Origin: Deltaproteobacteria bacterium
Lineage (GTDB): Bacteria > UBA10199 > GCA-002796325 > JACPFF01
DNA length: 36,436 nucleotides
Assembly: GCA_016183125.1 (NCBI GenBank)
Contig: JACPFG010000063.1
Coordinates: forward strand, 1-36,436
Reading direction: 5' to 3'
The position numbers and the translations under genes were made by a program. The notes below the pieces were generated by a model that had not been told where the DNA came from, did not search any database, and saw only the letters and a list, made by a program, of their open reading frames with translations. Shown here one piece after another: positions 6,004 to 29,868 of the stretch (the stretch's first letter is position 1; every line of letters begins with the position of its first letter).

Positions 6004-6059
6004 CCACGATCTTCGTGCTCGACCGGCTGCCTCGTTCTGTTGCGCGTGATCGGAAGTAG
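6003..6059 (+). repeat. Diverged duplicate of the last 57 bp of the DUF35-SCP2 gene (5151-5207)
   Basis: TTIFVLDRLPRSVARDRK* versus TTIFKLDRLPRSVARDRG*; 42/57 nt and 16/18 aa identical. Confidence 0.95.
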
Positions 6060-6936: not shown

Positions 6937-6949
6937 ATGGAGGACGGAA

Positions 6950-8823: not shown

Positions 8824-9912
8824 ATGGCGGGCGACAATAAAAACACACGGGTAGCGGTGGCGATGAGCGGGGGGGTGGATAGCTCGGTGGCTGCCGTCTT
8901 GCTCAAAGAGGCCGGCTACGACGTGATCGGGATCACGATGGCCCTCTGGAGTTGTCACAAGGGTGAGACCGCCAGGAAGAAGACATGTTGCTCGCTCACC
9001 GATGTCCAGGATGCCAGGGCGGTGTGCGAGCGGATCGGGATTCCGCATGTGGTGGCAGATTACCGTACGGAGTTTCGGGAGAAGGTGATCGATCATTTTG
9101 TGTCTGAGTATAAACAGGCTAGGACGCCGATCCCGTGTATCGGGTGCAACCAGTATTTTAAGTTCGAGCGTCTCTGGCAGACCGCACACGAGGAGTATGG
9201 CGCGGAGTTTATTGCCACTGGTCATTACGCGCGGATTGCGGATAATGGGAGCAGAAGCCTTCTTAAGGGAAGGGACACCCACAAAGACCAGTCCTATTTT
9301 TTATTCGTCATGACGCCGGAACAGTTGCGCCACAGCCTCTTTCCGGTCGGCGGGTTGACAAAAGCGGAGGTGCGGGAAATTGCTGCCCGGCACGGCTTGG
9401 CGACGGCCGAGAAAATAGAGAGCCAGGAGATCTGTTTTGTCCCGGATAACGATTACGCAGGATTTATCGAGGATTATTACCCGGAAGCGGTGGGGGCGCC
9501 CGGGGCGTTTGTCGATCAGGATGGGAGCGTTATCGGTCGTCACCGCGGTACGCACGCCTATACGATAGGCCAGCGCAGAGGATTAGGCGTGGCGGTGGGC
9601 GAGCGGCAGTATGTCACGGCCATCGATCCCGTGAACGGCCAGGTGAAGCTTGGGCGCGAGGAAGAGCTCTATCGCGCCGGGCTGACGGCAACTGGAATGA
9701 ACTGGATCGTCGATCTCCCTCGAGAATTTGCCGCGAACGCAAAAATCAGGTATAAGCACGTTCCGGCGCCGTGCCAGGTGCGTATCTTGGACGACGGGGC
9801 GACACTCGTGGACTTCACTGAGCCGCAGCGGGCGATCACGCCTGGCCAGGCGGTGGTCTTCTACGATGGAGACACGGTGCTTGGTGGTGGGTGGATTGAG
9901 CGGGCAGTGTAA
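8824..9912 (+). CDS. mnmA: tRNA 2-thiouridine(34) synthase
   Basis: AMSGGVDSS, TPIPCIGCN, ATGHY, KDQSYFL, ESQEICF, TIGQRRGL and ITPGQAVVFY motifs. Confidence 0.97.
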   Translation: MAGDNKNTRVAVAMSGGVDSSVAAVLLKEAGYDVIGITMALWSCHKGETARKKTCCSLTDVQDARAVCERIGIPHVVADYRTEFREKVIDHFVSEYKQARTPIPCIGCNQYFKFERLWQTAHEEYGAEFIATGHYARIADNGSRSLLKGRDTHKDQSYFLFVMTPEQLRHSLFPVGGLTKAEVREIAARHGLATAEKIESQEICFVPDNDYAGFIEDYYPEAVGAPGAFVDQDGSVIGRHRGTHAYTIGQRRGLGVAVGERQYVTAIDPVNGQVKLGREEELYRAGLTATGMNWIVDLPREFAANAKIRYKHVPAPCQVRILDDGATLVDFTEPQRAITPGQAVVFYDGDTVLGGGWIERAV

Positions 9913-9913
9913 A

Positions 9914-10654
9914 ATGGATATTACACGGGAAGAGAAACAGGAATTGAAGCGATTGGAGAAGGCGCTTGGCTATACCTTCCGCCGGCGCGTTCATTTGAAG
10001 CGAGCGCTCACGCACCGTTCGTATGCAAACGAGATGCGACTAAAACCAACCGAGCATAATGAGCGTTATGAATACCTGGGGGACGCGGTTCTTGAACTGG
10101 CGGTGAGTCATCTCCTGATGGATCAATATCCAGATCATCCCGAAGGCGAGCTCTCTAAATTACGAGCTGCGCTGGTCAACGAGGCGCAGTTGGCAGATCT
10201 AGCTCGGGAGGTGCAGCTGGGCATTTATCTATATCTGGGTAAGGGGGAGGAGCAGACCGGCGGGAGGGAGAAGCCATCCCTGTTGGCGGATGCGTTCGAG
10301 GCCGTTTTAGGGGCGATCTATATCGATCGCGGTTTTAAGAAATGCTTCGACGTTGTTAAGCATAAATTTCATAATATATTTCAGAATGTTAGACGAGGAG
10401 AATTCATCCAAGACTTTAAGACAAAACTACAGGAAGAGTCGCAGCAGCGTTTTCGTACGGTGCCGCGATATCGCCTGGTGAAGGAATCGGGCCCCGATCA
10501 CAGCAAGACCTTCGAGGTAAATCTCTACATCGAGGAGCGCCTGTTAGGGGCCGGCCGCGGCCCGAGTAAGAAGGCGGCCGAGCAGGATGCCGCGCGTCAG
10601 GCGCTGGAAAAGATTGCGGGTTCGCCGGCTGCCGAGCGCCAGTATAATCTATGA
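9914..10654 (+). CDS. rnc: Ribonuclease III
   Basis: ALTHRS, NERYEYLGDAVL, ADAFEAVLGAIY and a C-terminal dsRBD (DFKTKLQE...GPSKKAAEQ). Confidence 0.97.
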   Translation: MDITREEKQELKRLEKALGYTFRRRVHLKRALTHRSYANEMRLKPTEHNERYEYLGDAVLELAVSHLLMDQYPDHPEGELSKLRAALVNEAQLADLAREVQLGIYLYLGKGEEQTGGREKPSLLADAFEAVLGAIYIDRGFKKCFDVVKHKFHNIFQNVRRGEFIQDFKTKLQEESQQRFRTVPRYRLVKESGPDHSKTFEVNLYIEERLLGAGRGPSKKAAEQDAARQALEKIAGSPAAERQYNL

Positions 10655-11532
10655 CGTTTCGGTGTGGCTACGTAGCCCTAATCGGTCGGCCCAATGTCGG
10701 CAAATCGACGCTGATAAACAGACTGGTAGGCGAATCGCTCGCGATCGTTACGCCAAAACCGCAGACTACGCGACAGAGGATCGTAGGCATTGTTCAGCGC
10801 CCCGAATCCCAGCTGATTTTTGTCGACACGCCCGGATTTCATGAATCCGCAAAATTACTCAATCGGGTCATGCTGAAGCAGGTGGATCAGGCCCTGGCCG
10901 ATGCGGATGCGGTCTGTCTTCTGCTGGAACCGCGCGCTTCCATCGACCCGATCGACCGCGAACTTTGGATGCGTATAGCCGGAGACTTACGCGCGACTCT
11001 ATTTGCTGTTATCAACAAGATGGACCTGGTGCCGCTCGCTAAAGTTGCACGGTTGTTGACGGCGCTGCGTCAGGAGCTGGGGCGAGAGCCGATGACCCTC
11101 TCAGCACTCAATGGGACAGGCGTCGAGGGTCTTATGCAGTCCTGCGAGGCCGTGTTACCAGAGGGCCCGGCGCTCTATCCAACCGATCAATATACCGAAC
11201 ACCCGACGCGGTTTCTCGCCGCGGAGATGATTCGGGAACAGCTGATTGTCTCTCTTGGCGAAGAGCTCCCCTATGCGACGGCCGTGGAGATCGAGGCGTT
11301 CGAGGAGAAAGAAAAACTCACGCGGATCCGCGCCCTGGTGATCGTGGAGAAAGACTCCCAGAAGGGGATCGTGATCGGGCAGGGGGGGCGCACGCTCAAA
11401 AAGATCGGCACGCGCGCCCGCGCAAAAATCGAGACCCTCGTCGGGACGAAGGTCTATCTCGAACTGTTTGTGCGTGTGGAAGCCGGGTGGACGAAGGATC
11501 CTACGGCGCTTCGGCGGCTGGGCTATGGATGA
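10651..11532 (+). CDS. era: GTPase Era
   Basis: [27 protein letters not shown] and QKGIVIG motifs; ATGA overlap with rnc. Confidence 0.97.
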
Positions 11533-15620: not shown

Positions 15621-18600
15621 ACGAAACGATTCGCACCAGTTATCCTCACGCTCCTCCTCGCAGCGATTGGGTGTGGGGAGGATGAGGTGCCCCGACTCGA
15701 ACCATCCGGGAATCCCGCTGCGTCTTCGCAGACGACCGATGTAGCGAAAAATACTCCCTCACCGTCACTAGATGTCTACGTGGACGATATCGACTCGGGG
15801 TTTTCAAAGTACGGCACCAGCAATTGGACGGAGGCCTGGACTGGTTGGCCCACCCCCGGTGGGCATATGTGGTACACCTGGAATACTCTTAAATATGTGG
15901 AAAACTCCGCGATGTGGATGCCAAATCTTCAGTGTTCTGGAAAATACGAGATTCAGGCCTATATTCCGAGTGAAAACGCCAAGACGTCTAAAGCAAAGTA
16001 CGAGATTAAGTCTGACGTCGGTTGGAGCAACTCAATTATTTCGCAACTAGCCAACCCTGGGAAATGGGTTGCTCTCGGCGGCAGCGGCACCACCTATTCA
16101 TTCACGAAGGGGGCCAGCGATCGGTATGTGAAATTAACGGACGTAACAGGCGAAATCAGTTCCAAAGGCCTATTTTACCGTATCGCCTTCGATGCAATCA
16201 AGTGGATCTACAAAGAAAAACTCTCCAACATGGGTTTTACCCTAACTGCGCCTAATAGCGGAACCGCCTGGTCCAAGGATGACACGTGTTTGTCGGTAAA
16301 ATGGTCCACGCAAGGGGATGTGCCTGGCGGTGTACGCATTCATTTGTACAAAGGCGGGACGAGCCCGTCGCAATTCGTCAAATCTCTCATTGGAAGCACA
16401 CCCAATAACGGCTCGGCATGTGTAGATGCCTCTGCGTTAAAGGACCAACCACTGGCGAGCGATTACGTGATTGGCATCTCCAATAATTTCCCCTATTGCG
16501 ACGGCTATGTATGGGCCTTTTCCAATTCTTTTAAGATCGCCGCGCCAGATCTTACGGGGTATCAGTTGCCAGGCTGGGGCGGCAAGTTGGTTGGCTCTGG
16601 CGTGTCCGGAACGAATAGTAACAGCGCGCTTTATACGTGTAAGGTTGCCTATTTCGATGTGGGCATCAAGAACGAGGGAAATGGCGACAACAAGAAAACG
16701 ATTTCAAATCGTCTACTGATAGACGGGATTAATTACGGCACCTGGACCGAGAGTCCGCTGAGCGCCGGATCGTATACCTCCGAAATCGACATGCCTGTCT
16801 CCGGCATCACTGCCGGAACGCACACGGTAAAAGTGGAAATTGATTACCCTAACAATATCCCGGAGAGTGATGAGAGCGATAACGCTGTGTCCGGTTCCTT
16901 TGCCTGGCAGCCATGTAATAATCCAAGCGTTATAATTACCTCGCCTGCGAATGGAAGCAGTACAACCTCCTCGTCTGTCACCGTATCCGGGACGTGCAAC
17001 GATTCCGATGGTGATTTAAAAACCTATATTGTCACGGTCAATGGAACGAGCTTGCCGCCAGGAAATATTAGTGGGGGGAGCGCCGCATTCGCGAAAACCG
17101 TCTCCCTGAATGTCGGATCGAATAAAATTGAGGCCACATGTACCGATCAACAGGGATTGGTCAGCAATGTGGCTATGATTACCGTGACCCGAACACAACT
17201 TGGGGGCATCGCCGGAACGGTGACGAGCACAAAAGGTGGCGCCATTGCCGTGGCCTCCGTCACGGCCAATGGGCCGGTTGGCGTGACAACGTCCACAGCC
17301 AGCGACGGCAGTTATTCCTTTACCGGGCTTCAACCAGGGACATATACGGTGACGGCTTCGTCCGCCGGTTATTACAGCACGTCCCAGTCAGTGAATGTGC
17401 AGACGAATACCACAGCAATTGCAAATTTTTCACTGGTGCCTGTCCCCAAACCGATCCTTTCGGTTGCACCAACCGCGGTTAGCGTCACGATGCCCTCCGG
17501 ATCGTTGAACGGGACACAGCAGGTCATTATCCAGAACAACGGAGACGCAAACCTCCAGTATTGGTTAGTTGTCCCGCCCCCATCGTGGCTCACGATTAAG
17601 CGCAATGGCGGGGCGCTTGTGAGTACTTCCGTGTCGCCGCCGTTGGCGCCCGGAGCAAAAGACACGCTCACGTTTTACTTTAACAGCAATCAGGTCTCAT
17701 CAAATCAGGCCGCCCTCCTAGTGGTCGGTTCCAACGATACGGCCAAAGGGGACACGGGGATTGATGTCACGATGACGATCAAGGCGTCCTCGCCGCCGCC
17801 GCCCCAGTACCCGGCGCCTAGCACGCCGACGTTCACCCCGACGTTCAGCGGGTCCTGCACGCTCATTAATGCCTGCGCCAAGGACCCCGTGAATACCGCC
17901 ACGGGGAATTATACCTATAGCCATACCGATCTGAATATCCGGTCCCGCGGGCCATCGCTCCTCTTTGCGCGGACATACAACTCGTTTGATCCGACGATCG
18001 GGCCGTTGGGACTTGGCTGGACGCACAGCTTCCACGTCTATGCGCTGGAATATACCAAAGACGATGGATCGCCCGGCGATGTCTATATCCGCTGGGGCAC
18101 CGGTAGAACGGATTGGTACCAGCGCAATGCCGATGGGACATACACTCCGGCGCCCGGCCTCTTCGACGCGTTTGTCAAAAACGGCGATGGCTCCTTCACG
18201 CTGGTCGAAAAGAATAAGACGGTCTGGAATTTCCAGGGGAGCGGGCGTCTGGCAAGTGTTGCCGACCGGCATGGGAACGCCATGACGCTTACATATGAAG
18301 ACGCGGAGCCGAAGCGCCTCGTGGCGGCGACGAATGCGCTCGGTGAGCAGTTGATCTTCTCGTATCAATCGGGCGATCCGCTCAAACTCGCCGACGTTTG
18401 GGATGTCCAAGGCAACCGGAAGATCCTCTTTACGTATGAGGGGGACCGGCTTACAACCGTCACGGATGCTAACGGCAATCCATTTACATTCGAGTACGAC
18501 GCAGCCGACCGATTGACCAAAATCATCGAGCGGGATGGCAAGCCGCTCGTCACGAACGCCTACAGCGCGAACGACCCGACCGACCGCCGTGTCCTCACAC

Positions 18601-21600
18601 AGCAAGATGGCTTAGGGAACACGACCGCGTTTTCATACGATACGCCCACTCCGTGGGAGACGACCGTCACCGATCCGGCGACTGAGGAGTTTCCGGGCGG
18701 CCGCAAGCATATCTATTCGTACGACGCCCTCTACCGGCTGCGCCGACACACCGCGCCGAGCGGCATGGACATAGTGACGTACGACTATAACGACAACCAC
18801 CAGCGCACGAAGATGACCGATGCCAACGGGAAGGTGACGCTTTGGGAGTACGACCCGCGCGGGAACCTGACGAAGATCACCGAGGCCGAAGGTGCACCCG
18901 AAGAGGTTGTCACGACCTGGACCTACTACCCTGGCACCGACCTGGTGGATCTCCATGTGACTCCGCTCGGTCTGACACTCAAGCACTATTACGAAGGCGA
19001 CGATCTCACGAAGGTGGAGGGGACAGGCCCCGATATCGAGCCGTTTGCGGTGGAATATACGTATCTCCCGACCGGCGAGGTGGCGACCGTGAAGGATCCG
19101 ATGCAGTATGTGACCACGTTCGATTATAATGGGAAGGGGGAGCTAGAGCAGATCGTATCGCCGCCGACAACAGCGAGCCCTGGTGGGGAGATCGCAAGTT
19201 TCGGGTACGATTCCAGTCATCGGCCTACGAGCGTTGCCGACCCGTATCTCCAATCGCTCGGCAAGGCCGCGCTCTACACCTACGACAAGAACGATCGCAT
19301 CACGAAGACCACCGACGGTCTGACGCGGGAGACGACCATCACGCCGGACAAACGGGACCTGGTGGAAAAGATCGCTGCGCCGAACGGCATCGTCACATAC
19401 GCCTACGACGACGCCGGGCGGTTGGTCAGCGTCACAACACCCACTGGGACCGTGACGTATGGTTACAATGCGAGCCACGAGCGAACGAGTGCCACCTCGC
19501 CGGGAAATCACACGACGACCTATTCTTACGATCCTTTGGGGTACCTGGCCAAGGTTACCGATCCGACGAACCGATCGCTCACACTCGATGCCGATCCGAT
19601 GGGTGCGCTCAAATCCTTGGCGAACTCACTCAATCACACGGTGGGCGTGGCGCCGGACCTCCTGGGACGAGCTAAGGAGATCACCGATCCGGTCGGGCGA
19701 AAGATCGAACTCCAATATAACGACGCCGGCCAGGTGACCAGTCGCGCGGGGCTCTTCGACCCGGCGAACCCTGCGACCAAGGTGACGACAACGACCGTGT
19801 ACGATGTGCTGGGCCGATTGCGGAAAATTACTACGCCGGCGAACGGGGAGATGGCGGCGCAATATAATCTTAATGCCGACATCATCGGCATCACGAATCC
19901 CAATGGCCATACCACGTCGTGGGTGCAAGGTCCGCTTGGGCGGCCGGAGGCGGAGCGGTTCGATGGAGTGACAAAGCGGACGTTCGGGTATTATCCGGGC
20001 GGACGGATCAAGACCGCGACGAATGCCAAGAGCGAGACGACCACTTTCCTCTATGATGAGGCCGCACGACTGAAAGAGATCCAATATGCGGATGGGGCCA
20101 AACGGACGATCGCCTTCAAGGGACAGACCGATCGAGTGGAAGCCATTACCCTCGTTGAGACGGACGGCACGACACGGAGCCGGAGCTTCACGTATGATTC
20201 GGCAGGCCGAGTCGCGACCGCCACCGATCCGTGGGGCAATACTATCAGCTACACGTATTGGCCGGATGGCCAGGTAAAGACGATCACGTATCCGGGGAAC
20301 AAGACGGTCAGTTACGCATACGACGACGCGGGGCGCCTTGCCACAGTGACGGACTGGCTGACACCGCCGGGGGTAACGACATACGGCTACGACACAGCGG
20401 GGAGGCTCGACACGATCACGTATCCGAACGGGGCGACGGCTGTCTATGCGTATGAAAATGACGGACGGGTGAAGAGTATCGCACACCGAAAGGCCGATGG
20501 GACGATCCTTGCGTCACAGACCGTTGGCTACGATGGACGCGCGCACGTGAAGGCCATCGAGTTGGTGCCGGAGCCGACCGCAGCGCTTGAAGGCAAAGAG
20601 CTCGACTACACGCCGAACGCGGAAGACCAATATGCGCAGATCGGTGGCCTCAACCTCGAGTACGATCCGGTGGGGCGGCTCACCACACCGTTCGTTGATG
20701 GCGGCCCCGGGATGGCATACACCTTCGACGTCAGGGACCATCTGGCGCAGGCGACGACAACCGGCGGTACGGTGAGTTATATCTCCGGCCCGGAGGGGGA
20801 GCGAATCGAGCAATCGGCTGGGGGCGCGACGACGCGGTATGTCGTGGACACGACAAGCAGGCTCTCGTCTGTTGTGGCGGAATTGGACGGCGCGAATACG
20901 CCGACCGCTTACTATATCTACGGCGTCGGATTGCTCGCGAGGATTCCAGCAAACGGCCAGAACGCAAGATATTACCATCAGGATGCGCAGCAAAATATCG
21001 CGGCGCTTACGGATGCGAGCGGCAATGTCACAGACAGTTACTTCTATCATCCGTTCGGACAGGTGTTGACCCAGACCGGCAGCACGCCGAACCCGTACCG
21101 GTTTGCCGGCGCGCTCGGTGTGGAGAATGATCCTACCGGCCTCTATTACATGCGCGCGCGCTACTATGATCCGGCCCAGGGGCGGTTCATCAGCAAGGAT
21201 CCGATTGGGATGGCGGGGGGGATGAATCTGTATGGTTATGTCGGGAATAATCCGCTCCGTGCGGCAGATCCCCTTGGCCTCTTCTCCTGGAAGACCTTTG
21301 GCACCGGATTGCTCGAACTTGGGAAGGCGGCCCTGAGTGTTGTTGAGACCGTCGGCAATGCCTTCCTAGCAGGAGGGTCGCTGGCCATTTTCCAGCCGGA
21401 AGGAACTGCCGCCCTTGGGCTTGCTGCCGTCGGCAACCTGGACGATGCCTTCGTTAACACTACGAATAGTTTTAATAACATCGTTGGGGCATTTTCAGAT
21501 AAACCGGCTGAAAAATTGATTACGCAAGGACCTTATAGAGAATTTCTCCAGGCAACCCTTGGGAGTACAAAGCTCTTAGATGTCCCTCAGGAGGCAGCGG

Positions 21601-21929
21601 ACGTTGCGTCATTTCTCTACGAGACTCCACAGCTCATTAAAGAAACACCTAAAATTATCGAAAAAATCGGGAAGGCAAGCAAGATTTACAAAAACGCCAA
21701 GTCGGTTGGAGGTGGGTCTGCGTCAGGAAAATATATACTGAAGAAGGGGACTGGGCTCGTTTCTGAATATTTAGATGTGCTCAACGATGCGACGGAAATA
21801 ATTTCCGGTGAGGACATATTGGAACATGCGGAAGATTGGATGATGTCACCGCAGCCGCAAGACACGACGATGATGTTGCAAGGATCGTATTTTAATTTAC
21901 AGACTACGACGGCTCCGACATCAAAATGA
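15621..21929 (+). CDS. Rhs/YD-repeat lipoprotein with N-terminal golvesin-like, CARDB, Ig-like and carboxypeptidase-regulatory-like domains, DUF6531, Rhs core and ~215-aa C-terminal domain
   Basis: Frame extends upstream of GTG 15687 to (ACG)KRFAPVILTLLLAAIG-C lipobox; ESDESDN, DPVNTATGN, many YD repeats and YYMRARYYDP..GRFISKDP...NNPLRAADPLGL core. Confidence 0.9.
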   Translation, partial: TKRFAPVILTLLLAAIGCGEDEVPRLEPSGNPAASSQTTDVAKNTPSPSLDVYVDDIDSGFSKYGTSNWTEAWTGWPTPGGHMWYTWNTLKYVENSAMWMPNLQCSGKYEIQAYIPSENAKTSKAKYEIKSDVGWSNSIISQLANPGKWVALGGSGTTYSFTKGASDRYVKLTDVTGEISSKGLFYRIAFDAIKWIYKEKLSNMGFTLTAPNSGTAWSKDDTCLSVKWSTQGDVPGGVRIHLYKGGTSPSQFVKSLIGSTPNNGSACVDASALKDQPLASDYVIGISNNFPYCDGYVWAFSNSFKIAAPDLTGYQLPGWGGKLVGSGVSGTNSNSALYTCKVAYFDVGIKNEGNGDNKKTISNRLLIDGINYGTWTESPLSAGSYTSEIDMPVSGITAGTHTVKVEIDYPNNIPESDESDNAVSGSFAWQPCNNPSVIITSPANGSSTTSSSVTVSGTCNDSDGDLKTYIVTVNGTSLPPGNISGGSAAFAKTVSLNVGSNKIEATCTDQQGLVSNVAMITVTRTQLGGIAGTVTSTKGGAIAVASVTANGPVGVTTSTASDGSYSFTGLQPGTYTVTASSAGYYSTSQSVNVQTNTTAIANFSLVPVPKPILSVAPTAVSVTMPSGSLNGTQQVIIQNNGDANLQYWLVVPPPSWLTIKRNGGALVSTSVSPPLAPGAKDTLTFYFNSNQVSSNQAALLVVGSNDTAKGDTGIDVTMTIKASSPPPPQYPAPSTPTFTPTFSGSCTLINACAKDPVNTATGNYTYSHTDLNIRSRGPSLLFARTYNSFDPTIGPLGLGWTHSFHVYALEYTKDDGSPGDVYIRWGTGRTDWYQRNADGTYTPAPGLFDAFVKNGDGSFTLVEKNKTVWNFQGSGRLASVADRHGNAMTLTYEDAEPKRLVAATNALGEQLIFSYQSGDPLKLADVWDVQGNRKILFTYEGDRLTTVTDANGNPFTFEYDAADRLTKIIERDGKPLVTNAYSANDPTDRRVLTQQDGLGNTTAFSYDTPTPWETTVTDPATEEFPGGRKHIYSYDALYRLRRHTAPSGMDIVTYDYNDNHQRTKMTDANGKVTLWEYDPRGNLTKITEAEGAPEEVVTTWTYYPGTDLVDLHVTPLGLTLKHYYEGDDLTKVEGTGPDIEPFAVEYTYLPTGEVATVKDPMQYVTTFDYNGKGELEQIVSPPTTASPGGEIASFGYDSSHRPTSVADPYLQSLGKAALYTYDKNDRITKTTDGLTRETTITPDKRDLVEKIAAPNGIVTYAYDDAGRLVSVTTPTGTVTYGYNASHERTSATSPGNHTTTYSYDPLGYLAKVTDPTNRSLTLDADPMGALKSLANSLNHTVGVAPDLLGRAKEITDPVGRKIELQYNDAGQVTSRAGLFDPANPATKVTTTTVYDVLGRLRKITTPANGEMAAQYNLNADIIGITNPNGHTTSWVQGPLGRPEAERFDGVTKRTFGYYPGGRIKTATNAKSETTTFLYDEAARLKEIQYADGAKRTIAFKGQTDRVEAITLVETDGTTRSRSFTYDSAGRVATATDPWGNTISYTYWPDGQVKTITYPGNKTVSYAYDDAGRLATVTDWLTPPGVTTYGYDTAGRLDTITYPNGATAVYAYENDGRVKSIAHRKADGTILASQTVGYDGRAHVKAIELVPEPTAALEGKELDYTPNAEDQYAQIGGLNLEYDPVGRLTTPFVDGGPGMAYTFDVRDHLAQATTTGGTVSYISGPEGERIEQSAGGATTRYVVDTTSRLSSVVAELDGANTPTAYYIYGVGLLARIPANGQNARYYHQDAQQNIAALTDASGNVTDSYFYHPFGQVLTQTGSTPNPYRFAGALGVENDPTGLYYMRARYYDPAQGRFISKDPIGMAGGMNLYGYVGNNPLRAADPLGLFSWKTFGTGLLELGKAALSVVETVGNAFLAGGSLAIFQPEGTAALGLAAVGNLDDAFVNTTNSFNNIVGAFSDKPAEKLITQGPYREFLQATLGSTKLLDVPQEAADVASFLYETPQLIKETPKIIEKIGKASKIYKNAKSVGGGSASGKYILKKGTGLVSEYLDVLNDATEIISGEDILEHAEDWMMSPQPQDTTMMLQGSYFNLQTTTAPTSK

Positions 21930-24577
21930 AACGAATGTGGCAGACAATTTGCGTAACATTCATCGGCCTAAGTATCGGCATTTCGAGCGTGATTGCCTCG
22001 CCGATCATCTTCACCTACGACACCACGGGACGGCTGCAGTCCTTCAGCCTCCCATCAGGTTCGTCGGCTACCTTCACCTACGACGCGAACGGAAATCGCC
22101 TGCATGAGAGCGTGAAGCCACCGCCGGATATAACCGCGCCAACCGTTGCCGGCACAAGTATCCCGGATGGCGCGACTGCGGTCCCGATCAACGCGCCGAT
22201 CACGGTCACCTTCAGCGAGCCGATGGACGCGGCGACGATCACGACGAGTTCGTTCCAGGTGGCGGATGGGACCGGGCCGATCGCGGGGACGGTGAGCTAC
22301 GCAAACAGTACCGCGACGTTCACGGCGACCGCGCCGCTGAATTATTTCACCGACTATACGGCCACGGTGACCACCGATGTAAAAGATGCCGCGGGGAATC
22401 CCTTGGCTGCGCCGGTGAGCTGGAGCTTTAGGACGATCGTGCCGCCGGTGATCGGTGCGGCCGGTGGCGGCGGGCATACGGTTACAATCGGGACCGATGG
22501 ATCGGTCTGGACGTGGGGCTACAACTCGCACGGACAATTGGGGAGCGGATCGCTCGTCGACCTAAACGCGCCGGCGCGAGTGAATGGCGTGACCGGGAGC
22601 GCGACCGCCGTGGCCGGCGGAGACTCCCATACCGTGGCCGTGGCCGGCGGTGTGGTCTGGAGTTGGGGACGGAATACCGTGGGGCAACTGGGTGACGGAA
22701 CGACAACTGACCGAAATGTCCCTGTCCAGATCGGTGGATTGCCGCCGGTGACAGCCGTGGCCGCGGGTGTCCTTCACGCCGTCGCGTTGACGACGCCGGC
22801 GGCGGGCGGCGAGGTCTATGCCTGGGGAAGCAATACGCTCGGCCAAGTCGGCGATGGGACGACAATGCAACAGACAAGTCCGGTGAAGGTCCCAGGCATC
22901 GCCGGCGCCACGGTCATCAGCAGTCGGGGAAATCACACGCTTGCCTTGAGCGGTGCCGATGGCACCGTCTGGACTTGGGGGTTCAATGGTTGGGGACAAC
23001 TGGGCGATGGCACCACGACGACGAGTACAACACCGAAGCAGGTGCAAGGCCTCACCGGCGTAGACGCCATTGCCGCCGGGTTCGGGCATTCGCTAGCAAA
23101 GGTGAACGGCACCGTCTACGCGTGGGGACTGAATGCCAATGGACAACTGGGCGATGGGACGACGAACAATCAGTCGGCGCCTCAGGCGGTCGCGGCGCTG
23201 GCAGGAATTGATATCGTCGCCATCGCGGCAGGGGCGAACTTTAGCCTCGCCCTTGATGCCAATGGCGCCGTGTACGCCTGGGGCCTGAACAGCAGCGGGC
23301 AGTTGGGCGATGGGACATTCACAGATCAGTTGAATCCGAAGACAATCGGGACGTTCACGGGAGCGGTCGGAATCGCCGCCGGGGGAAGCCACACCATGGT
23401 CTGGAAGGCCGATGGAACGATGTCCTCATGGGGCTACAATTTCTACGGTCAGGTTGGGAATGGCTCGGCAACGTATGTCGCATACACGCCGACACCTGTT
23501 TTGACGAACGTACAAGCGGTATCCAACGGCGGGAAACACACGCTCGCGTTGCTGGCCGATGGCACGGTGCGGGCCTGGGGATCAAATAGCAACGGGCAAT
23601 TGGGCGATGGGACGACAACGAATCGGGATGCGCCGGTGGCGGTGCCCGGACTCACCAACGTCACCGATATCGCCGCGGGAAGCCGGTTCTCCGTCGCGGT
23701 CGAAAACAACGACACCGTCCGGGTCTGGGGGATCAACAGCTCGAAGGAATTGGGATTGGGCGCCGCGAGTGCCGATGTCCTGCAACCGACGCCATTGCCG
23801 GGGCTCAGCGGCGTGACGGCCGTTGCGGCGGGTGATTTTAGCACGGCGGCGATCGTGGGTGCGACTAACGACGTATGGACCTGGGGCTCCAACAGCAACG
23901 GCCAGTTGGGGAACGGGAGCTATGCGAATCCAGGCGTCCCCGCGGCGGTGCCCGGCCTGACAGGTGCAACAACCATTACCGGTGGCGGACGTCATTTCCT
24001 TACCTTGAAGAGTGACAAAACGATTGTGGCCTGGGGACGGAATGCAGATGGCGAACTGGGCGACGGAACGAAAGTCGAGCGGACGGCGCCTGTGACGGTT
24101 GCCGGACTCACGGACGTGATCGCGATCGGGGCGGGGCATAGGCACTCACTCGCGGTGACCGCCGATGGAACGGCGTTCGCCTGGGGGCTTAATTCCAGCG
24201 GGCAACTCGGCGACGGGACATTCGCGCAACACTCGGCGCCCGCGCCGATATCGAATCTCGTAAATGTCGCAGCCGTCGCGGGCGGGGCATCTCATTCGCT
24301 GGCGCGGCTATTGGATGGCTCTGTTCAGGCCTGGGGATTCAACCTCCTCGGCCAACTTGGCGACGGCACGGCGGTTACGACCGGAAAGAATTTGCCGGTT
24401 CAGGCGGTGGGTCTTGCCGGCATCGAGTTTGTGGACGCCGGTACCGGCTCATCCTCCTATGCCCTCGACCTCGCCACCGGCACGCTCTATGAGTGGGGCT
24501 GGAACGGCGCCACCGCCTTCGTAGATGGCACGATCCCATGGGTACTCGTGCCCACCGCCGTCCTGTGGCCGGAGTAA
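21926..24577 (+). CDS. Secreted protein: YD repeat + SbsA/Big_5-like Ig domain + RCC1/BLIP-II repeats (about two propellers)
   Basis: Signal peptide; YDTTGRL...YDANGNR; ITVTFSEPMD...VKDAAGNPL; about 13-14 W(T/A)WG.N..GQLGDGT-type repeats; ATGA overlap with the Rhs stop. Confidence 0.9.
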   Translation: MKRMWQTICVTFIGLSIGISSVIASPIIFTYDTTGRLQSFSLPSGSSATFTYDANGNRLHESVKPPPDITAPTVAGTSIPDGATAVPINAPITVTFSEPMDAATITTSSFQVADGTGPIAGTVSYANSTATFTATAPLNYFTDYTATVTTDVKDAAGNPLAAPVSWSFRTIVPPVIGAAGGGGHTVTIGTDGSVWTWGYNSHGQLGSGSLVDLNAPARVNGVTGSATAVAGGDSHTVAVAGGVVWSWGRNTVGQLGDGTTTDRNVPVQIGGLPPVTAVAAGVLHAVALTTPAAGGEVYAWGSNTLGQVGDGTTMQQTSPVKVPGIAGATVISSRGNHTLALSGADGTVWTWGFNGWGQLGDGTTTTSTTPKQVQGLTGVDAIAAGFGHSLAKVNGTVYAWGLNANGQLGDGTTNNQSAPQAVAALAGIDIVAIAAGANFSLALDANGAVYAWGLNSSGQLGDGTFTDQLNPKTIGTFTGAVGIAAGGSHTMVWKADGTMSSWGYNFYGQVGNGSATYVAYTPTPVLTNVQAVSNGGKHTLALLADGTVRAWGSNSNGQLGDGTTTNRDAPVAVPGLTNVTDIAAGSRFSVAVENNDTVRVWGINSSKELGLGAASADVLQPTPLPGLSGVTAVAAGDFSTAAIVGATNDVWTWGSNSNGQLGNGSYANPGVPAAVPGLTGATTITGGGRHFLTLKSDKTIVAWGRNADGELGDGTKVERTAPVTVAGLTDVIAIGAGHRHSLAVTADGTAFAWGLNSSGQLGDGTFAQHSAPAPISNLVNVAAVAGGASHSLARLLDGSVQAWGFNLLGQLGDGTAVTTGKNLPVQAVGLAGIEFVDAGTGSSSYALDLATGTLYEWGWNGATAFVDGTIPWVLVPTAVLWPE

Positions 24578-24590
24578 GAGAGGGTAGGCA

Positions 24591-24618
24591 GTGAAAGGTA
24601 CCAGAGGGGATATGCGGC
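24591..24618 (+). repeat. 28-bp direct repeat, left copy (orphan RBS + ATG)
   Basis: GTGAAAGGTACCAGAGGGGATATGCGGC; 26/28 identical to 25339-25366. Confidence 0.95.
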
Positions 24619-24625
24619 TGAGCAA

Positions 24626-24910
24626 TCACCTCAGGGTAATATCCACTCGCTTTCCCACCACTGAGGCAAATTTGATCAGGGTGTCCAGGCCGATGTTGGC
24701 CTCCGGGTCACTGATAATCCGCTCTACCTGGGATTTGCTGGTCCCCATGAGGCTGGCTACTTTCCTGATCGATAGGTGCGACCTGGTCATAGCGGTCTTG
24801 AGACGATCCGCCAGCCGTAATCGTTCCTTTTCTTTTTTGAAATGGACCGCAAACATCGGGTCCTTGAGGTCCCTTTCCAAATCTTTGTGAAAATCGCCGC
24901 TCGTTCTCAT
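24626..24910 (-). CDS. XRE-family HTH antitoxin (HigA-like)
   Basis: L.DP.FA..F...LSIRKVASLMGTSKSQVERI...N..LDTL.K; lies downstream of the RelE-like gene. Confidence 0.85.
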   Translation of the reverse strand: MRTSGDFHKDLERDLKDPMFAVHFKKEKERLRLADRLKTAMTRSHLSIRKVASLMGTSKSQVERIISDPEANIGLDTLIKFASVVGKRVDITLR

Positions 24911-24923
24911 AAAATCCCCCCCT

Positions 24924-25241
24924 TTATTCGCTCATCCGATTATAAGCCGTATCAATCTCCCGTTGAGGCGTTTTGTCCGACTTTTTCCGGAAGCCGTGCA
25001 GCAACACGACCTTCCCTTCATGGTAACAATAGAAAACCCGATGCGCCCCCGCTCTCAATTCAAACAACCCTGGATATCCTCCCATCTTCTTGGCGTGAGG
25101 CTCGTTCAAAACAACCTTCTCCGAGAGATGGGCAATCAGGGCCTTCACCTTCGCCCTCTCTTTGTCAGAAAGGGTTTCAATATAAGTCCTGACCGGTTGA
25201 TCGCCACGAGCAGTCTCATAGTAGGTAACCGGGATACTCAC
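24924..25241 (-). CDS. RelE/ParE-superfamily toxin (HigB/Gp49-like)
   Basis: YYETARG..PV..YI, EPHAKKM, LFELR, RVFY and LLHGFRKKSDKTP..EI..A motifs. Confidence 0.9.
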   Translation of the reverse strand: MSIPVTYYETARGDQPVRTYIETLSDKERAKVKALIAHLSEKVVLNEPHAKKMGGYPGLFELRAGAHRVFYCYHEGKVVLLHGFRKKSDKTPQREIDTAYNRMSE

Positions 25242-25249
25242 CGGAAAGA

Positions 25250-25278
25250 AGCGTACCTATATATGGGGGCAAAGTCAA
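25250..25278 (-). promoter_or_regulatory. Sigma70-like promoter of the HigBA-like module
   Basis: TTGACT-17-TACGCT, then 8 nt to GTG 25241. Confidence 0.6.
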
Positions 25279-25297
25279 TGAAGAATCAAGCCAGGGG

Positions 25298-25312
25298 ATC
25301 TTCCCGCTTGAC
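25298..25312 (+). promoter_or_regulatory. 15-bp motif ATCTTCCCGCTTGAC, copy 2, upstream of the S8 giant gene
   Basis: Identical to 15533-15547. Confidence 0.6.
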
Positions 25313-25338
25313 CTCGGTTGTTCTTGGTTCTAAAGACC

Positions 25339-25366
25339 GTGAAGGGTCCCAGAGGGGATATGCGGC
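25339..25366 (+). repeat. 28-bp direct repeat, right copy (functional RBS + ATG of the S8 gene)
   Basis: GTGAAGGGTCCCAGAGGGGATATGCGGC; ATG at 25360. Confidence 0.95.
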
Positions 25367-28300
25367 GACGGCGGCAAATGGTGCGATGGGTCGGTGGAGT
25401 GGGGCTGGCGGGCTTGCTTGCCACCGGCTGCGGGACGAATGCCCCCGATTCCGCATCAGGGCCGGATGAGCCGCTTGCCCTGACACCAAATAGCGCGCTG
25501 CAGGAGCTTGTTCCCACCGAGCCGGAGTTGCTTGAAGCGATCCAAACATCCCCCACGCCGCGCACTATCACCTTTTCCGTCCCGCTCGATCCCCGCCAAC
25601 CGGCCGCCGGCCCGCGCGATCAGCAACAGGAGCGGGCGTATCGTCTGAAGCGGCCGTATCGGACGACGGAGGTCCTGGTGGGCCGACCGAGCGACGCGCT
25701 TCCATTCGAGCGAGTGGCCGTCCCGATCGGAACGGATGTCGCAAACGCGCTTGCCAGCCTCGGCGCCGAGCCGAATTATCTTACATTCCTTGCCGGGGAG
25801 CCGACGAACGATCCGTATTTTTCCTGGCAGTGGGCGCTGGCGAAGATCGCCGCGCCGGAGGCGTGGGAGCTTTTCCCGGCGAGCGCGCCCGTGCGCGTGG
25901 CGGTGCTGGATACCGGCGTTGACGCGGCCCATCCCGACCTCTTCGGTCGCGTTCTCCCCGGATATAATGCGATCAATAATACGGAGAATGCCGACGACGA
26001 CCACGGCCACGGGACGATGGTGGCGGGGGTCATCGGCGCGGGCGGCAACAACGGCTTGGGGATTGCTGGGGTAGCGCCGCAGGTGGAGATCCTGCCGATC
26101 AAGGTGATCGCCCAGTCGGGCGAGGGGTCGTATGCCGACCTGATCGCGGGGATCTACTACGCGATCGAACATGGCGCCGACGTGATCAACATCAGCGCGG
26201 GGGCGTATGCCCCCTCGAACCTCCTGCACGACGCGCTGACCGCAGCCGAGGTCGCGGGGATCGTCGTGGTCGCGGCGGCGGGGAACGATGCGACCGATAC
26301 CCCGATGTATCCGGCGGCATATCCGGAGGCGATGGCGGTGACGGCGACAGACGCAACCGATGCCATCTGGCCGGAGAGCAATTACGGGACGCACGTGGAC
26401 CTGGCCGCGCCCGGCGCAAACATCATGAGCACGATGTCAGGTGGCGGGTATGCCTTTGCCGACGGGACGAGCCTCGCCACCGCGCATGTGGCCGGGGCGG
26501 CGGCGTTACTATTATCCCACGCCGCGGCACAGACGGGAGCGGATGTCGTGTCCCGGTTGTTATCGAGTGCGATCGATCTCGGCGCGAAGGGGAAAGATGC
26601 CGCCTATGGGGAAGGGCGGCTGACACTGATCCCGCCAACGGTGGGAAAACCGGTCGCGGATGCCGGCGAGCTACCCGCAGGCGATGCGGAAGAGATCGGC
26701 CAGGGTCCTATCACGGTCCAATATAATGTGGAGATCCATCAGGACATCGCCTCTGCCGCACTCCTCTTTCTCAAAAAGAAACTCGAAGAAAAGGCAATTA
26801 CGCAGGAGATGTATGATGAGTTTGCTGAGTATAAATTTTGGATCCGGGATGGGGCCCGCGCCGAGGACAAGGCGGTATTGATTGGAAAGTTTGCCGAAAA
26901 GGTGATCGATTTTCTGTTTGGGGAAGGCGCGCCGTGGCATGATCCCAAAAATGGCAAGGGGCTCGATCCACTTGCGTGGGGAGACATTGCCTACGAGGAT
27001 GTCAATTGCCGCTGGTTTAGGCATTTTTATCGGCCCATCGACAAGCAGGGATTTCTTTCCCCTCCTGCTTTCGTCGAGTGGTGCGGTGAACTAGATAAAA
27101 GCATGGTAGGCAAGGAACACATAGAGTTTCCCAACGCGTATGAATGGGGAGGGAAGGCAAATGCTCAAAACAGCTTCGATTGGGAAGATGCCAAGGTGCA
27201 TTACCACTCGCCCGACACGACTCAAAAATATCCTGGCCTGATCGAACAGAACGGTGGATTTTTTTTCAAGCTGCAACCATTAAAGCTCCAACGAGCTTAC
27301 TATGCCCTCGGCCATGTCCTCCATCTCCTTATGGATACCTCCGTGCCGGAGCATACACACATCGAGGCCCATGCCGAGGTGAACCCCGGCGGGTACGAAC
27401 ACTATATGAAGAAGCAAGGCACGGGCGGCGTTATGAGCCGACTCAATACCGGCTTGTTGCTCAAGCCACTAAATGAATACCCGACGCTGGAAAAATATTT
27501 TCACGAGATGGCCACGTATAGCTTTAACCGCAATCTTTTTCAGGGGAATTTGACGGGAGACGAGGCCTCTGGCGAACTGTCTCAGATGTTCCCTTCGTTG
27601 CACAAAACTCTCGCAGGGTGGTGGGTCATTGCCGGTTGGGATGATACAACAAACTTCTTTTGCAATCCGAGCTCTCTTTGCGACCTTTGGTGGAGCGGGC
27701 AGGGAGATGGGGATGGGGACGATGTCGACTTCGACGATGACTGGTGGGAGGAGACGGAGTTTAAAGACAGTCCGGCGCCGCCCGGGTTTTATTACATCGA
27801 AAAGAGCAACGAGGTTTGCCCCAAGATGTATCACAATACCCCGAAACCGGGGAATAACGGAGATATGGTCAGCGGAAAGTGCAAGGATAAGACGCTTGCC
27901 GCGATGATGGCGGACGACATTATTCCGATGGTCATCCAGTACACGGCCTCGGCGATGCGGTTGTTCTGGCACGAGACGCATGCGGACCTGAAAATCGTTC
28001 CCTTCTCGGTGAACGTGCTGCAAACCGCAGTGCCGGCTAAGGGGAGCAATGTCGCTAATTATCAATTGAAGTTCACGATCCGGAACGACGGTGGGGCCGA
28101 TTCCGGCAATGTGTTCGCCGGTTTTCGGCCACCCGGCAGTCTCCTCGAATTCGGCACAACGATGCTTCCGTCGATCCCCCCCGGCGGAGAGGCGCCCGTG
28201 AAGATTGCACTCAACGGAATCGCCTTGCCCCTCTGTGCTCCCTGTGCCGCGGGGACGATCGTTGCGCATTACGTTCACGGTTCGGAAACGCAAGCGGTGG

Positions 28301-29868
28301 CAACGCATGCGATTTACGGCGGCGACATCAAACTCCCGAAGACGCCGGGCGGGGTAGATTTCTCGAAAGTGGATCTGACCGGATTGTCCGTTGATCCGGC
28401 GACCGGCGCGATCGATTTCGTCCTGAAGGGGACGCCCGCGGGCGAGGGCGAGGCTAGCGTAGATGCCTCCGCGCTCCAGGAAAAACTCAAGGCAACGTTC
28501 CTCACTGCGCTCACTATTCCAAACTGGAAGCAGTTTATCTCGCTCGATCTTCTCCCCGATGGAAATGGGGGGTTTGTCGGCAAGGCGCGCACCGAACCGC
28601 CGTTTGAACAGACCGCACTTGCGAACACGATGTGGACGGCGGACGTGGCGATGAAGCTCGAACTCTTTTCCGCGCAGCATCAGAAGCCCAATCTGGACAA
28701 GTGGGTAAGCCTCGTCCAGGGGAGCCCCTATTGGCCGCAGATCTCGGCGGCCGGTTTTAACGCATCTCCCACGTATGTGGCGCGGGGGACGATCGTCCCC
28801 GGTCTATCTTCCCCGCTCCAAGCGACGATCGATCAGGCCTTTCTCGATCAGGCCCCCCTTGCGGTGGACATCGGCTGGAGCCAGCAGCCGTCGATTAACT
28901 TAAGCCCGTATAATTTCAGCCAGCCGGTTGTGGAGAATTTCCAGTCCCTCGTAACTGAGTGGAAGGGTTTTTTTGAGGCGGGGATGAAAGACCTCGCCGC
29001 GGTGGTGCTCCAAAAGATGAGCGCCGGCGATCCTGCCTATGGGGACCTCGCAGCGCTCTATCCCGCGGTGTTGTTGGCGCAGTGGTACAAGACGCTACCT
29101 AAGGGAAGTCTCCCATATGCCGACATCATCAACAAGGAGGCGCTGGCAGATCTCGACCTCGTTGTGCCCTTTAATCAATCATACTGGGATGGGCAGGCGG
29201 CGCAACCGCTTGGGTCGACAAATGTGAGTTGGTTTAATGGAGAGACCTGGATCTTCAATTACTGGGGCGGGGCGGAATTTTTCGTAGGATTCAACGGTAA
29301 GACCGAATCGCTCGGCCAGGCGGAAGAGACGCTATTAACAACCGTAACCGGCGGGGAGGCCGTGCAGCAGGGGGACACCTGGTATTTTTCCGGCGGGTCC
29401 GCAAGCCAGGACCAGCCGGATCTGGCCGGGATGATGAGTGTGACGACCGCGCTGGTCGTGGCCACGAAAAATGCCATAATTGCACTCACGATCACGAACG
29501 CGAGCAACATCGCCGCTGGCCCCGTCGCGTACAAGATCCTCGACCAGGTAACGAATGGGGGCGCGCCGATCACGCTCGCCGTGGCGGAAGGGAACTTGCC
29601 GGGAGTCGGCGGATGGGACGGGGTGAGCGTGGAGATCCCGTGGAGCGTGCCGGATCTCGTCGGCCTCCATCAGCTCTCCCTTGCGATCGATCCGGCGAAT
29701 GCCATCGCGGAGAATAATGAATCGAACAATATGTTTCAGACGATGGTGGCAGTCATCTCCCCGCTGCCGAAGGTTGCGATCCTTGCCCCCTCCGGCGGCA
29801 CGCTCCCGAAGGGAGAGGCGATTCTCTTTAGCGGTTCGGCCACGACCTCCCGCCCGGCCAACATCTGA
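25360..29868 (+). CDS. Giant lipoprotein, N-terminal part: S8 subtilase + Zn-dependent PLC/P1-nuclease-like domain + unknown domain + CARDB
   Basis: MRRRR..LAGLLATG-C lipobox; triad motifs VLDTG, HGTMVAG, GTSLA and oxyanion AAGND; LGHVLHLLMD..VPEH; frame breaks at ~29844. Confidence 0.85.
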   Translation: MRRRRQMVRWVGGVGLAGLLATGCGTNAPDSASGPDEPLALTPNSALQELVPTEPELLEAIQTSPTPRTITFSVPLDPRQPAAGPRDQQQERAYRLKRPYRTTEVLVGRPSDALPFERVAVPIGTDVANALASLGAEPNYLTFLAGEPTNDPYFSWQWALAKIAAPEAWELFPASAPVRVAVLDTGVDAAHPDLFGRVLPGYNAINNTENADDDHGHGTMVAGVIGAGGNNGLGIAGVAPQVEILPIKVIAQSGEGSYADLIAGIYYAIEHGADVINISAGAYAPSNLLHDALTAAEVAGIVVVAAAGNDATDTPMYPAAYPEAMAVTATDATDAIWPESNYGTHVDLAAPGANIMSTMSGGGYAFADGTSLATAHVAGAAALLLSHAAAQTGADVVSRLLSSAIDLGAKGKDAAYGEGRLTLIPPTVGKPVADAGELPAGDAEEIGQGPITVQYNVEIHQDIASAALLFLKKKLEEKAITQEMYDEFAEYKFWIRDGARAEDKAVLIGKFAEKVIDFLFGEGAPWHDPKNGKGLDPLAWGDIAYEDVNCRWFRHFYRPIDKQGFLSPPAFVEWCGELDKSMVGKEHIEFPNAYEWGGKANAQNSFDWEDAKVHYHSPDTTQKYPGLIEQNGGFFFKLQPLKLQRAYYALGHVLHLLMDTSVPEHTHIEAHAEVNPGGYEHYMKKQGTGGVMSRLNTGLLLKPLNEYPTLEKYFHEMATYSFNRNLFQGNLTGDEASGELSQMFPSLHKTLAGWWVIAGWDDTTNFFCNPSSLCDLWWSGQGDGDGDDVDFDDDWWEETEFKDSPAPPGFYYIEKSNEVCPKMYHNTPKPGNNGDMVSGKCKDKTLAAMMADDIIPMVIQYTASAMRLFWHETHADLKIVPFSVNVLQTAVPAKGSNVANYQLKFTIRNDGGADSGNVFAGFRPPGSLLEFGTTMLPSIPPGGEAPVKIALNGIALPLCAPCAAGTIVAHYVHGSETQAVATHAIYGGDIKLPKTPGGVDFSKVDLTGLSVDPATGAIDFVLKGTPAGEGEASVDASALQEKLKATFLTALTIPNWKQFISLDLLPDGNGGFVGKARTEPPFEQTALANTMWTADVAMKLELFSAQHQKPNLDKWVSLVQGSPYWPQISAAGFNASPTYVARGTIVPGLSSPLQATIDQAFLDQAPLAVDIGWSQQPSINLSPYNFSQPVVENFQSLVTEWKGFFEAGMKDLAAVVLQKMSAGDPAYGDLAALYPAVLLAQWYKTLPKGSLPYADIINKEALADLDLVVPFNQSYWDGQAAQPLGSTNVSWFNGETWIFNYWGGAEFFVGFNGKTESLGQAEETLLTTVTGGEAVQQGDTWYFSGGSASQDQPDLAGMMSVTTALVVATKNAIIALTITNASNIAAGPVAYKILDQVTNGGAPITLAVAEGNLPGVGGWDGVSVEIPWSVPDLVGLHQLSLAIDPANAIAENNESNNMFQTMVAVISPLPKVAILAPSGGTLPKGEAILFSGSATTSRPANI

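Follow-up and report, generated by a model that had tools for sequence, protein, structure and literature searches.

Contig JACPFG010000063.1 of a Deltaproteobacteria bacterium, referred to here as the window (36,436 bp, the whole contig, C101 of the bin), carries within a tightly packed row of plus-strand genes a minus-strand toxin–antitoxin (TA) pair of the HigBA type, which is bracketed by two copies of the start region of the next gene, encoding an S8 (subtilase) peptidase. The module itself is an ordinary HigBA-like pair; its placement, together with the genome-wide pattern to which it belongs, is a new form of a known, unexplained rearrangement. That the pair was inserted horizontally, with duplication of sequence at its borders, is very probable as such. 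As for the route, we put at roughly 0.6 the probability that the HigBA cassette was horizontally acquired and then installed by homology-anchored recombination with a relative's DNA, independently of any integrase or transposase. The source of the sequence is a metagenome bin of 142 contigs (1.77 Mb, 88% complete), and the sequence of the contig is present in groundwater metagenome runs.

The initial annotation had described 28-bp direct repeats, identical at 26 of 28 positions, with an exact 18-bp core and lying 748 bp apart. Coordinates and alignment agree with this description: the 28-mers occupy 24591–24618 and 25339–25366, 748 nt from start to start, and share the exact 18-mer CCAGAGGGGATATGCGGC (24601–24618 and 25349–25366). 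The similarity reaches 5 nt further to the left, giving a repeat of 33 nt with 29 identities. As had also been proposed, the left 28-mer begins 13 nt past the stop codon (TAA, 24575–24577) of the upstream gene for an RCC1-repeat protein and holds an orphan ribosome-binding site (RBS) and ATG-CGG, and the right copy supplies the RBS and the ATG (25360) of the S8 gene, from which a frame of 1502 codons opens. The orphan ATG opens a frame of 99 codons (24591–24890) antisense to higA, for which no Pfam or other family match was found. Removal of one repeat copy together with the 715-nt insert leaves a spacer of 34 nt between the RCC1 and S8 genes, so that collapsing the repeats does restore a seamless row of Rhs, RCC1 and S8 genes. 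The plus-strand genes of this row, Rhs, RCC1, S8 and CARDB/FG-GAP, are otherwise closely spaced: the end of the Rhs gene overlaps the ATG of the RCC1 gene by 4 nt, a further giant CARDB/FG-GAP gene starts at 29874 downstream of S8, and the sole wide gap is the one filled by the two minus-strand genes.

The repeat would carry no information on insertion if it were a widespread leader or regulatory motif or had matched by chance. With 3 mismatches or fewer allowed, the window contains two matches to the 18-mer, compared with an expectation of 0.03, and none of 100 shuffles reached two; local alignment of the two flanks scores 23 as against 8.1 ± 1.1 (maximum 13.5) in 200 shuffles; these results exclude a chance match. 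A search of the whole assembly at up to 6 mismatches found no third copy of the 28-mer or the 33-mer; for the 18-mer, a limit of 2 mismatches added a single match, on contig C141, which differs at 2 positions. The notion of a leader motif shared by many genes thus fails, and the explanation can for practical purposes be set aside. An insertion sequence (IS) or transposon was likewise considered and rejected. No inverted repeats bracketing the insert were found, and the Pfam scan returned no transposase or integrase gene in or beside it; the repeat, at 28–33 nt and imperfect, is indeed too long and too irregular for the target duplication of an IS, as the initial annotation had held.

The foreign character of the insert is borne out by its composition and by its relatives. 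Its GC (guanine plus cytosine) content is 0.506, compared with 0.632 in the RCC1 gene and 0.665 in the 5′ part of the S8 gene. The cassette core (24624–25278) recurs at 65–80% DNA identity in 8 of the 92 other genomes of the class that were searched, which belong to 4 families, and is absent from the 9 genomes of the order to which the bacterium belongs; the flanking genes gave no DNA match in this search. This distribution indicates horizontal transfer. In an alignment of six copies, homology starts 2 nt past the higA stop codon and ends exactly at a conserved TTGAC(T/A) box (25278); a TAC(G/A)CT box is conserved as well, after a 17-nt spacer containing an imperfect palindrome. From the alignment, this stretch reads as a putative cassette promoter and operator, and the limits of homology make the common unit a minimal expression unit. 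With 8 of 12 positions matched, the candidate promoter falls under the threshold of a simple promoter scan and is not listed by it; the scan for promoters and terminators between 24400 and 25500 returned one unrelated promoter-like site and no terminator. The 55 nt between the core and the right repeat, which are unique to this genome and without homology in the 8 related cassettes, may be a piece of donor flank or a tail of the cassette. No relative of the toxin was found in viral contigs, and the insert had no match in plasmid and phage DNA.

The assignment of the module as HigBA-like stands. The toxin scores 70.6 bits against PF05973 (cut-off 23.9), a family of the RelE/ParE superfamily of the HigB/Gp49 type, and matches the HigB structure listed in Table 1; the putative antitoxin is of the Xre type, with a helix-turn-helix (HTH) domain; and the toxin gene precedes the antitoxin gene on the same strand with a gap of 13 nt, the order found in HigBA modules, to which the palindrome in the promoter can be added. 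The pair differs from the family in that the antitoxin reaches only 17.1 bits against the HigA equivalog TIGR02607 (cut-off 47.7) and in that no NCBIfam model matched the toxin. By analogy with the family, the cassette should function as an ordinary HigBA module, with HigB as a ribosome-dependent mRNA nuclease and HigA as HTH repressor and antidote, and HigA would be predicted to bind the promoter palindrome.

The locus is not isolated. A scan of the genome for direct repeats 300–3000 bp apart yielded 140 pairs, most of them internal to repeat proteins (TPR, RCC1). Where the interior has a lower GC content than the flanks, the pair brackets a small accessory cassette, and what is repeated is the end of a host gene next to it. 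In this way at least 12 further small cassettes with a duplicated neighbour-gene terminus were found, with repeats of 21–158 nt (Table 1). Most of the repeats are two-copy and locus-specific, and in five cases the repeat ends 0–2 nt past the host stop codon. One of the cassettes lies in the window itself and had been proposed as the 3′-end counterpart of the HigBA case: the last 60 nt or so of the gene at 4209–5207 do recur, beyond a HEPN/MNT cassette, as an orphan that still ends in TAG. The two copies show 16 differences in 60 nt, of which 12 fall at codon position 3, and 9 of the 12 changed codons are synonymous. The gene has no orthologue in 20 relatives from which an empty site could be read. 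On contig C91 (array 7651–11279; locus L041 covers 8937–12780), four copies of one gene end alternate with three cassettes, encoding PIN, MNT+HepT, and MNT+HepT. Two further repeats, one on C114 and the 35-mer on C3, were set aside as members of dispersed repeat families.

Table 1. Features of the HigBA locus, its gene row, the HEPN/MNT case and the sister loci. Positions are those of the window unless a contig is named; repeats are given as identical/aligned positions or as length.
Feature	Location	Strand	Basis
Left repeat copy: orphan RBS and ATG-CGG-C, ATG at 24612	24586..24618	.	alignment of flanks
Inserted segment, 715 nt, GC 0.506	24619..25333	-	composition; interval between repeat copies
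higA-like antitoxin gene, 94 aa, Xre-type HTH	24626..24910	-	HTH_3 27.3 bits vs cut-off 23
higB-like toxin gene, 105 aa, GTG start	24924..25241	-	Gp49 PF05973 E 1.2e-19; PDB 6af3 HigB E 5.5e-8
Promoter-like stretch: -35 TTGACT (25278-25273), 17-nt spacer, -10 TACGCT (25255-25250)	25250..25278	-	by eye; conserved in six-cassette alignment
55 nt between cassette core and right repeat	25279..25333	.	no homology in 8 related cassettes
Right repeat copy: working RBS and ATG of S8 gene	25334..25366	.	alignment of flanks
Rhs-repeat giant surface protein gene, first of the row	15687..21929	+	RHS_repeat E 1.2e-73
RCC1-repeat protein gene, upstream neighbour of the insertion	21926..24577	+	RCC1 E 6.5e-137; WD40_RLD E 1.3e-155
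S8 (subtilase) peptidase gene, C-terminal CARDB domain	25360..29868	+	Peptidase_S8 E 2.5e-51; CARDB E 4e-10
Working copy of the 3′ end of gene 4209-5207, stop included	5147..5207	+	direct repeat comparison, about 60 nt
Cargo: HEPN (5267-5677) and MNT nucleotidyltransferase (5641-6003)	5267..6003	+	HEPN E 7.6e-21; Polbeta/NTP_transf_2 E 1e-9
Orphan copy of the end of gene 4209-5207	5999..6059	+	direct repeat comparison, about 60 nt
TolB 3′ end; cargo MNT+HEPN	C141		repeat 30/30
Ppx/GppA 3′ end; cargo HTH_3 protein	C17		repeat 54/59
Zn-peptidase 3′ end; cargo AAA_14-DUF4143	C136, first locus		repeat 58/66
Aldehyde dehydrogenase 3′ end; cargo BrnT/CopG	C136, second locus		repeat 51/59
Ketoacyl-synthase 3′ end; cargo AAA_14-DUF4143 and two open reading frames	C132		repeat 143/158
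Cargo DUF2283	C12		repeat 47/52
Cargo DUF4258/MqsA-like	C68, one of two loci		
Cargo DUF2283	C68, other locus		
Cargo a hydrolase	C93		repeat 34/34
Cargo unknown	C109		repeat 34/36
RCC1 paralogue 3′ end; 2.9-kb insert with DUF4423 and VWA-domain genes	C22 2509..5473 (locus L088)		repeat 37 nt
Cargo PIN	C106		repeat 21/21
Cargo DUF4143	C81		repeat 48 nt
Four copies of the 3′ end of gene 7651-8706	C91 8611..8699, 9435..9486, 10437..10490, 11189..11279		

The frequency of such repeats was compared with that at random positions for the testable loci of four families (score of at least 18). A flanking repeat was present at 14 of 67 loci and at 7 of the 150 random positions that served as control (Fisher p 4e-4). 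The contribution of the families is uneven: MNT has 8 of 16 (p 5e-6 for MNT alone, with one false match in an RCC1 repeat region and one locus bounded by the dispersed 35-mer among the 8), DUF4143 3 of 17, Gp49 1 of 2, and PIN 2 of 32 (p 0.49 alone). The arrangement also occurs outside this genome, since 3 of 29 HEPN loci from 28 relatives are flanked by repeats of 36, 61 and 92 nt (L056 in G037, 34/36; L070 in G020, 57/61; L084 in G011, 91/92). These belong to three other genera, and the repeat of L084 is the 3′ end of a neighbouring gene, a clear duplication.

How the two copies of a gene end came to differ can be read from the coding repeats. Were the orphans decaying target-site duplications, the differences would be expected to spread evenly over the three codon positions of the working gene. 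In seven coding repeat pairs, 35 of 56 differences fall at position 3 and 29 of the 47 changed codons are synonymous, compared with 11.3 ± 3.0 synonymous codons in a simulation of drifting orphans, where none of 5000 runs reaches 29. Under a fairer null, in which the working copy evolves too, at most about half of the differences would lie at position 3. When the r1–r4 pair of the C91 array is added, the count becomes 50 of 75 (binomial p 0.0026 against 50%, 1.3e-4 against 45%); with that pair left out, the excess at position 3 has p values of 0.041 and 0.006, respectively. The outermost copy of C91 differs from the working copy at 19 of 90 nt (21%), 15 of them at codon position 3, that is, at 15 of 30 third positions and 4 of 60 first and second positions. 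Orphans also keep their stop codon in register (TAG/TAG, TAA/TAA, and TAA/TGA on C22). The excess at position 3 and the in-register stops together imply that both copies have been shaped as coding sequence and, hence, that one of them derives from a diverged working allele of the same gene. The coding orphan copies look like the ends of diverged alleles, not like decayed target-site duplications.

For the HigBA locus, the following course of events is proposed. A self-contained higB–higA unit, extending from the −35 box to just past the higA stop codon and accompanied by the 55-nt tail, would have been acquired horizontally and placed antisense in the Rhs–RCC1–S8 row. The donor would have been DNA of a related strain in which the cassette already lay ahead of that strain's own S8 gene. 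After uptake, the host RecA would recombine the incoming DNA through homology at and beyond the S8 start, and the non-homologous end would be joined just behind the resident copy of the S8-start stretch. The right copy would then be the imported allele and the left copy the resident one; some 33 nt comprising the S8 RBS, the ATG and four more bases would now flank the insert on both sides, S8 keeping its start signal through the right copy and an orphan start being left behind the RCC1 stop. This might take the form of one homologous exchange and one non-homologous join, or of a single crossover of a circle, both of which would leave the resident terminus behind. Genes for DNA uptake and recombination are present in the genome (ComEC, DprA, RecA). 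At the HigBA repeat, the 4 differences of the 33-nt alignment all lie within the first 15 nt, and the RBS and ATG are identical (hypergeometric p 0.033), a pattern to be expected of two functional alleles. Being almost wholly non-coding, the repeat is not open to the codon test, so that the allele route is assigned to this locus by analogy with the sister loci; for HigBA specifically, we would give it even odds or slightly better.

The foremost competitor is a fresh long target duplication, in which the cassette entered where both strands had been broken in a staggered fashion, or through template switching as the DNA was replicated, and fill-in copied some 33 nt of target; the two copies, at the outset identical, would since have drifted apart by 2–4 bases. 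Exact repeats, as expected of young duplications, are found on C141 (30/30), C93 (34/34) and C106 (21/21), and a mechanism of this kind is the one assumed for restriction-modification (RM) systems (PMC2853133). The repeat data of the HigBA locus do not separate it from the allele model. What counts against it is the concentration of coding differences at position 3, which departs from even the most generous version of the null, above all in the r1–r4 pair of C91, and the failure to find Ku in a genome that is 88% complete. A fresh duplication is accordingly regarded as rather unlikely, albeit the only competitor of any weight. Recombination with a relative's DNA, the route favoured above, has to contend with several observations of its own. 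An exact core of 18 nt is short for a RecA-mediated exchange. The HigBA repeat is non-coding except for ATG-CGG-C, and by our own estimate a duplication whose working copy is under constraint would give the same pattern of differences about 15% of the time. Most TA loci of this genome have no such repeats, as the PIN count illustrates, and of the 5 higBA homologue loci examined, from 5 of the 8 related genomes, none had a significant flanking repeat. An empty or donor allele was not seen in relatives, public contigs or four metagenome runs. Finally, the evidence comes from a single bin of 142 contigs and 88% completeness, the mechanism being taken over from the sister loci.

The initial annotation had suggested looking for the empty allele in relatives or reads. 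In 40 relatives, DNA searches found the cassette core only, never its flanks, and searches with the S8 protein gave matches at the level of domains and no orthologue. For the N-terminal 447 aa of S8, no orthologue was found either, with 3 loci at 37–38% identity in metagenome contigs and 7 loci at 25–47% in genome contigs. Neither orthologues of S8 and RCC1 nor an RCC1–S8 junction turned up in the 40 relatives or the public contig collections, which constitutes missing rather than contrary data. The contigs of four groundwater runs of one study (X1–X4) contain the filled form only. A joint skipping the 748 bp was not seen in them, where rare variants are dropped in contig building, so that its absence from the reads is not shown, and run stretches without cover prove nothing. 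The sole joint listed leads from 24861 to 26025 in one contig and, with 22 letters on the shorter side, lies below the limit of trust. The suggested search was thus carried through and brought to light the occupied site alone; since no empty allele was found, the insertion itself is something that we infer.

The same runs bear on the possibility of an assembly chimera, in which junctions from two co-existing strains carrying the cassette at slightly different places were threaded together. The sequence is from a metagenome bin, and related strains could account for the allele-like differences between the copies. Against this, one 3115-nt Logan contig of run X1 spans 23800–26145 with no difference (X1 may be the source sample and is then not independent), the left junction is bridged in X2, X3 and X4 and the right junction in X4, and the coincidence would have to be repeated at each of the more than 12 loci that show this architecture. 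A chimera is therefore considered very improbable. Hardly more probable is site-specific integration, with an integrase supplied in trans acting at an att-like 18-nt core and the element bringing its own imperfect copy of the arm. An exact core with an imperfect arm on one side does resemble attL/attR, and there is a precedent in the prophages e14 and phage 21, which integrate in icd and bring a replacement gene end that differs mainly at silent sites. The cases share a duplicated gene terminus whose copies differ mostly at silent sites; the prophages, however, have their own integrase and one fixed site. Here, by contrast, many sites are involved and the 715-nt insert neither contains nor adjoins an integrase gene. 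No tyrosine recombinase is found next to the element, the genome containing just two PF00589 matches of about 300 aa, both on other contigs (serine recombinases were not searched), and the repeats elsewhere have no common core, each equalling its own local gene end, with neither inverted repeats nor a shared motif at the cassette borders.

Nobusato and colleagues reportedly described, in 2000, the insertion with long target duplication of RM gene complexes. Furuta, Abe and Kobayashi (2010; PMC2853133) give repeats of 46–423 bp, unique in the genome, for such RM insertions; the repeats sometimes overlap the 3′ end of a gene and are seen chiefly in species with natural competence. As to the mechanism, stated to be unknown, the proposal is that the restriction enzyme makes a double-strand break. 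A later review ascribes this mode of insertion to RM systems only (PMC3874152), and no account of a TA cassette bordered by a long target duplication came up in the literature searched, which took in few subscription journals. The 715-nt insert contains both TA genes and the putative promoter and nothing else, in agreement with a limit of 20 kb and the exclusion of other mobile elements (PMC2853133). Its repeat, at 29/33 or 26/28, is unique in the genome and lies at the lower edge of the length used there (more than 30 bp). The best reading of the architecture is that it matches insertion with long target duplication, here with a TA cargo. The two share a small addiction-type unit of deviating GC content and without a mobility gene, bracketed by genome-unique direct repeats, tens to hundreds of bp long, that overlap the end of a neighbouring gene. 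They differ in that the cargo is a type II TA pair and not an RM system, that the HigBA repeat covers a gene start rather than a gene end, that the HigBA locus has no empty genome for comparison, and that the copies at the sister loci differ like alleles, which a double-strand-break model does not predict. To our knowledge, TA toxins of the HigB kind do not cut DNA, so that the TA cases cannot be put down to breaks introduced by the cargo.

Homology-facilitated illegitimate recombination and Campbell-type insertion-duplication are known from laboratory crosses in transformable bacteria, where the anchors are usually longer than 33 nt. These routes resemble the one proposed here in using, via RecA, one homologous anchor with a non-homologous join or the crossover of a circle, and in that the anchor may come to flank both sides. 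No report of them as a natural path for TA cassettes was found in the literature searched. Chromosomal integron cassettes often carry TA pairs. Like them, the cassettes described here are promoter-poor or minimal units of 0.5–1 kb that sometimes form arrays with a repeated separator, as in the three cassettes and four gene-end copies of C91; in contrast to integrons, there is no integron integrase beside them and the separator is a copy of a host gene end. Inspection by eye of the borders of 17 repeat-flanked cassettes revealed no attC-like imperfect palindrome. Unusually long and variable flanking direct repeats are also found with the IS1634-type transposon of Mycoplasma (PMC2853133), but that element bears a transposase and defined ends, neither of which is present here.

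Type II TA modules count as some of the most mobile genes of prokaryotes, although the majority bring no mobility function of their own. To the question of how they arrive at ordinary chromosomal locations, the HigBA locus and its sister loci contribute a readable footprint: a duplicated neighbour terminus with allele-like differences points to host recombination with the DNA of relatives as the vehicle and thereby links TA cassettes to the unexplained long target duplications of RM systems. A more far-reaching idea, which is tentative and which we hold to be possible rather than probable, is that gene termini serve as enzyme-free docking sites in this groundwater lineage, TA and other small selfish cassettes travelling with a piece of the neighbouring gene and being installed by host uptake and RecA. 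If so, each acquisition would push the former gene end outward as an orphan, and arrays would grow in the manner of integron arrays at attI. C91 would be such an array, its outermost copy being 21% diverged, almost all at silent sites; HigBA at the S8 start would be the 5′-end form of the same process; and the long target duplications of RM systems would be footprints of docking rather than of staggered breaks. In practical terms, orphan gene ends and start signals can mislead gene callers, and an antisense cassette in an operon may alter expression of the downstream gene.

Several further features of the row, the window and the genome deserve mention. By eye, the N-terminus of the S8 protein reads MRRRRQ, after which come a hydrophobic segment and a Cys, as in secreted lipoproteins. 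The middle of the S8 gene (26600–28000) has a GC content of about 0.50, as against 0.665 in the 5′ part, and no Pfam match; it may be a domain of different origin. An antisense frame of 403 codons (27469–28680) in this region is likewise without a Pfam match. Downstream of the HEPN/MNT cassette, an alpha/beta hydrolase gene (6070–6864) contains a single in-frame TAG (6205–6207), which could denote a pseudogene, a read-through codon or a sequencing error, and on C22 a HicB-like gene follows the insert. The window holds five accessory modules (471–872, 5267–6003, 6896–7538, 7578–8723 and 24626–25241), and the 1.77-Mb genome as a whole, with matches to 36 PIN, 17 DUF4143, 16 MNT-type nucleotidyltransferase, 5 HEPN and 2 Gp49 domains, bears a very high accessory load.

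Two dispersed repeats were also noted. The first is an element of about 65 nt found at about 20 places, for example C3 25693, 26965 and 28634, C30 1741 and 3157, C132 5691, C68 16957 and C74 6153. In order, it comprises GCTAAC, a TTGAT...TCAAT hairpin, CCCCTGG and one of two alternatives, namely the palindrome CTTGSCAAG or a hairpin, CCGGCAGGCCATGCCGG, accompanied by a run of T. The element often adjoins small cassettes at their borders; no Rfam family matches it and the window contains no copy, and the idea of a common border motif for the cassettes was rejected because it is present at some borders elsewhere and absent from the window. The second, of about 115 nt (C114 1729–1853), recurs at more than 30 other places with 92–100% identity between copies, often at contig ends, and probably breaks the assembly.

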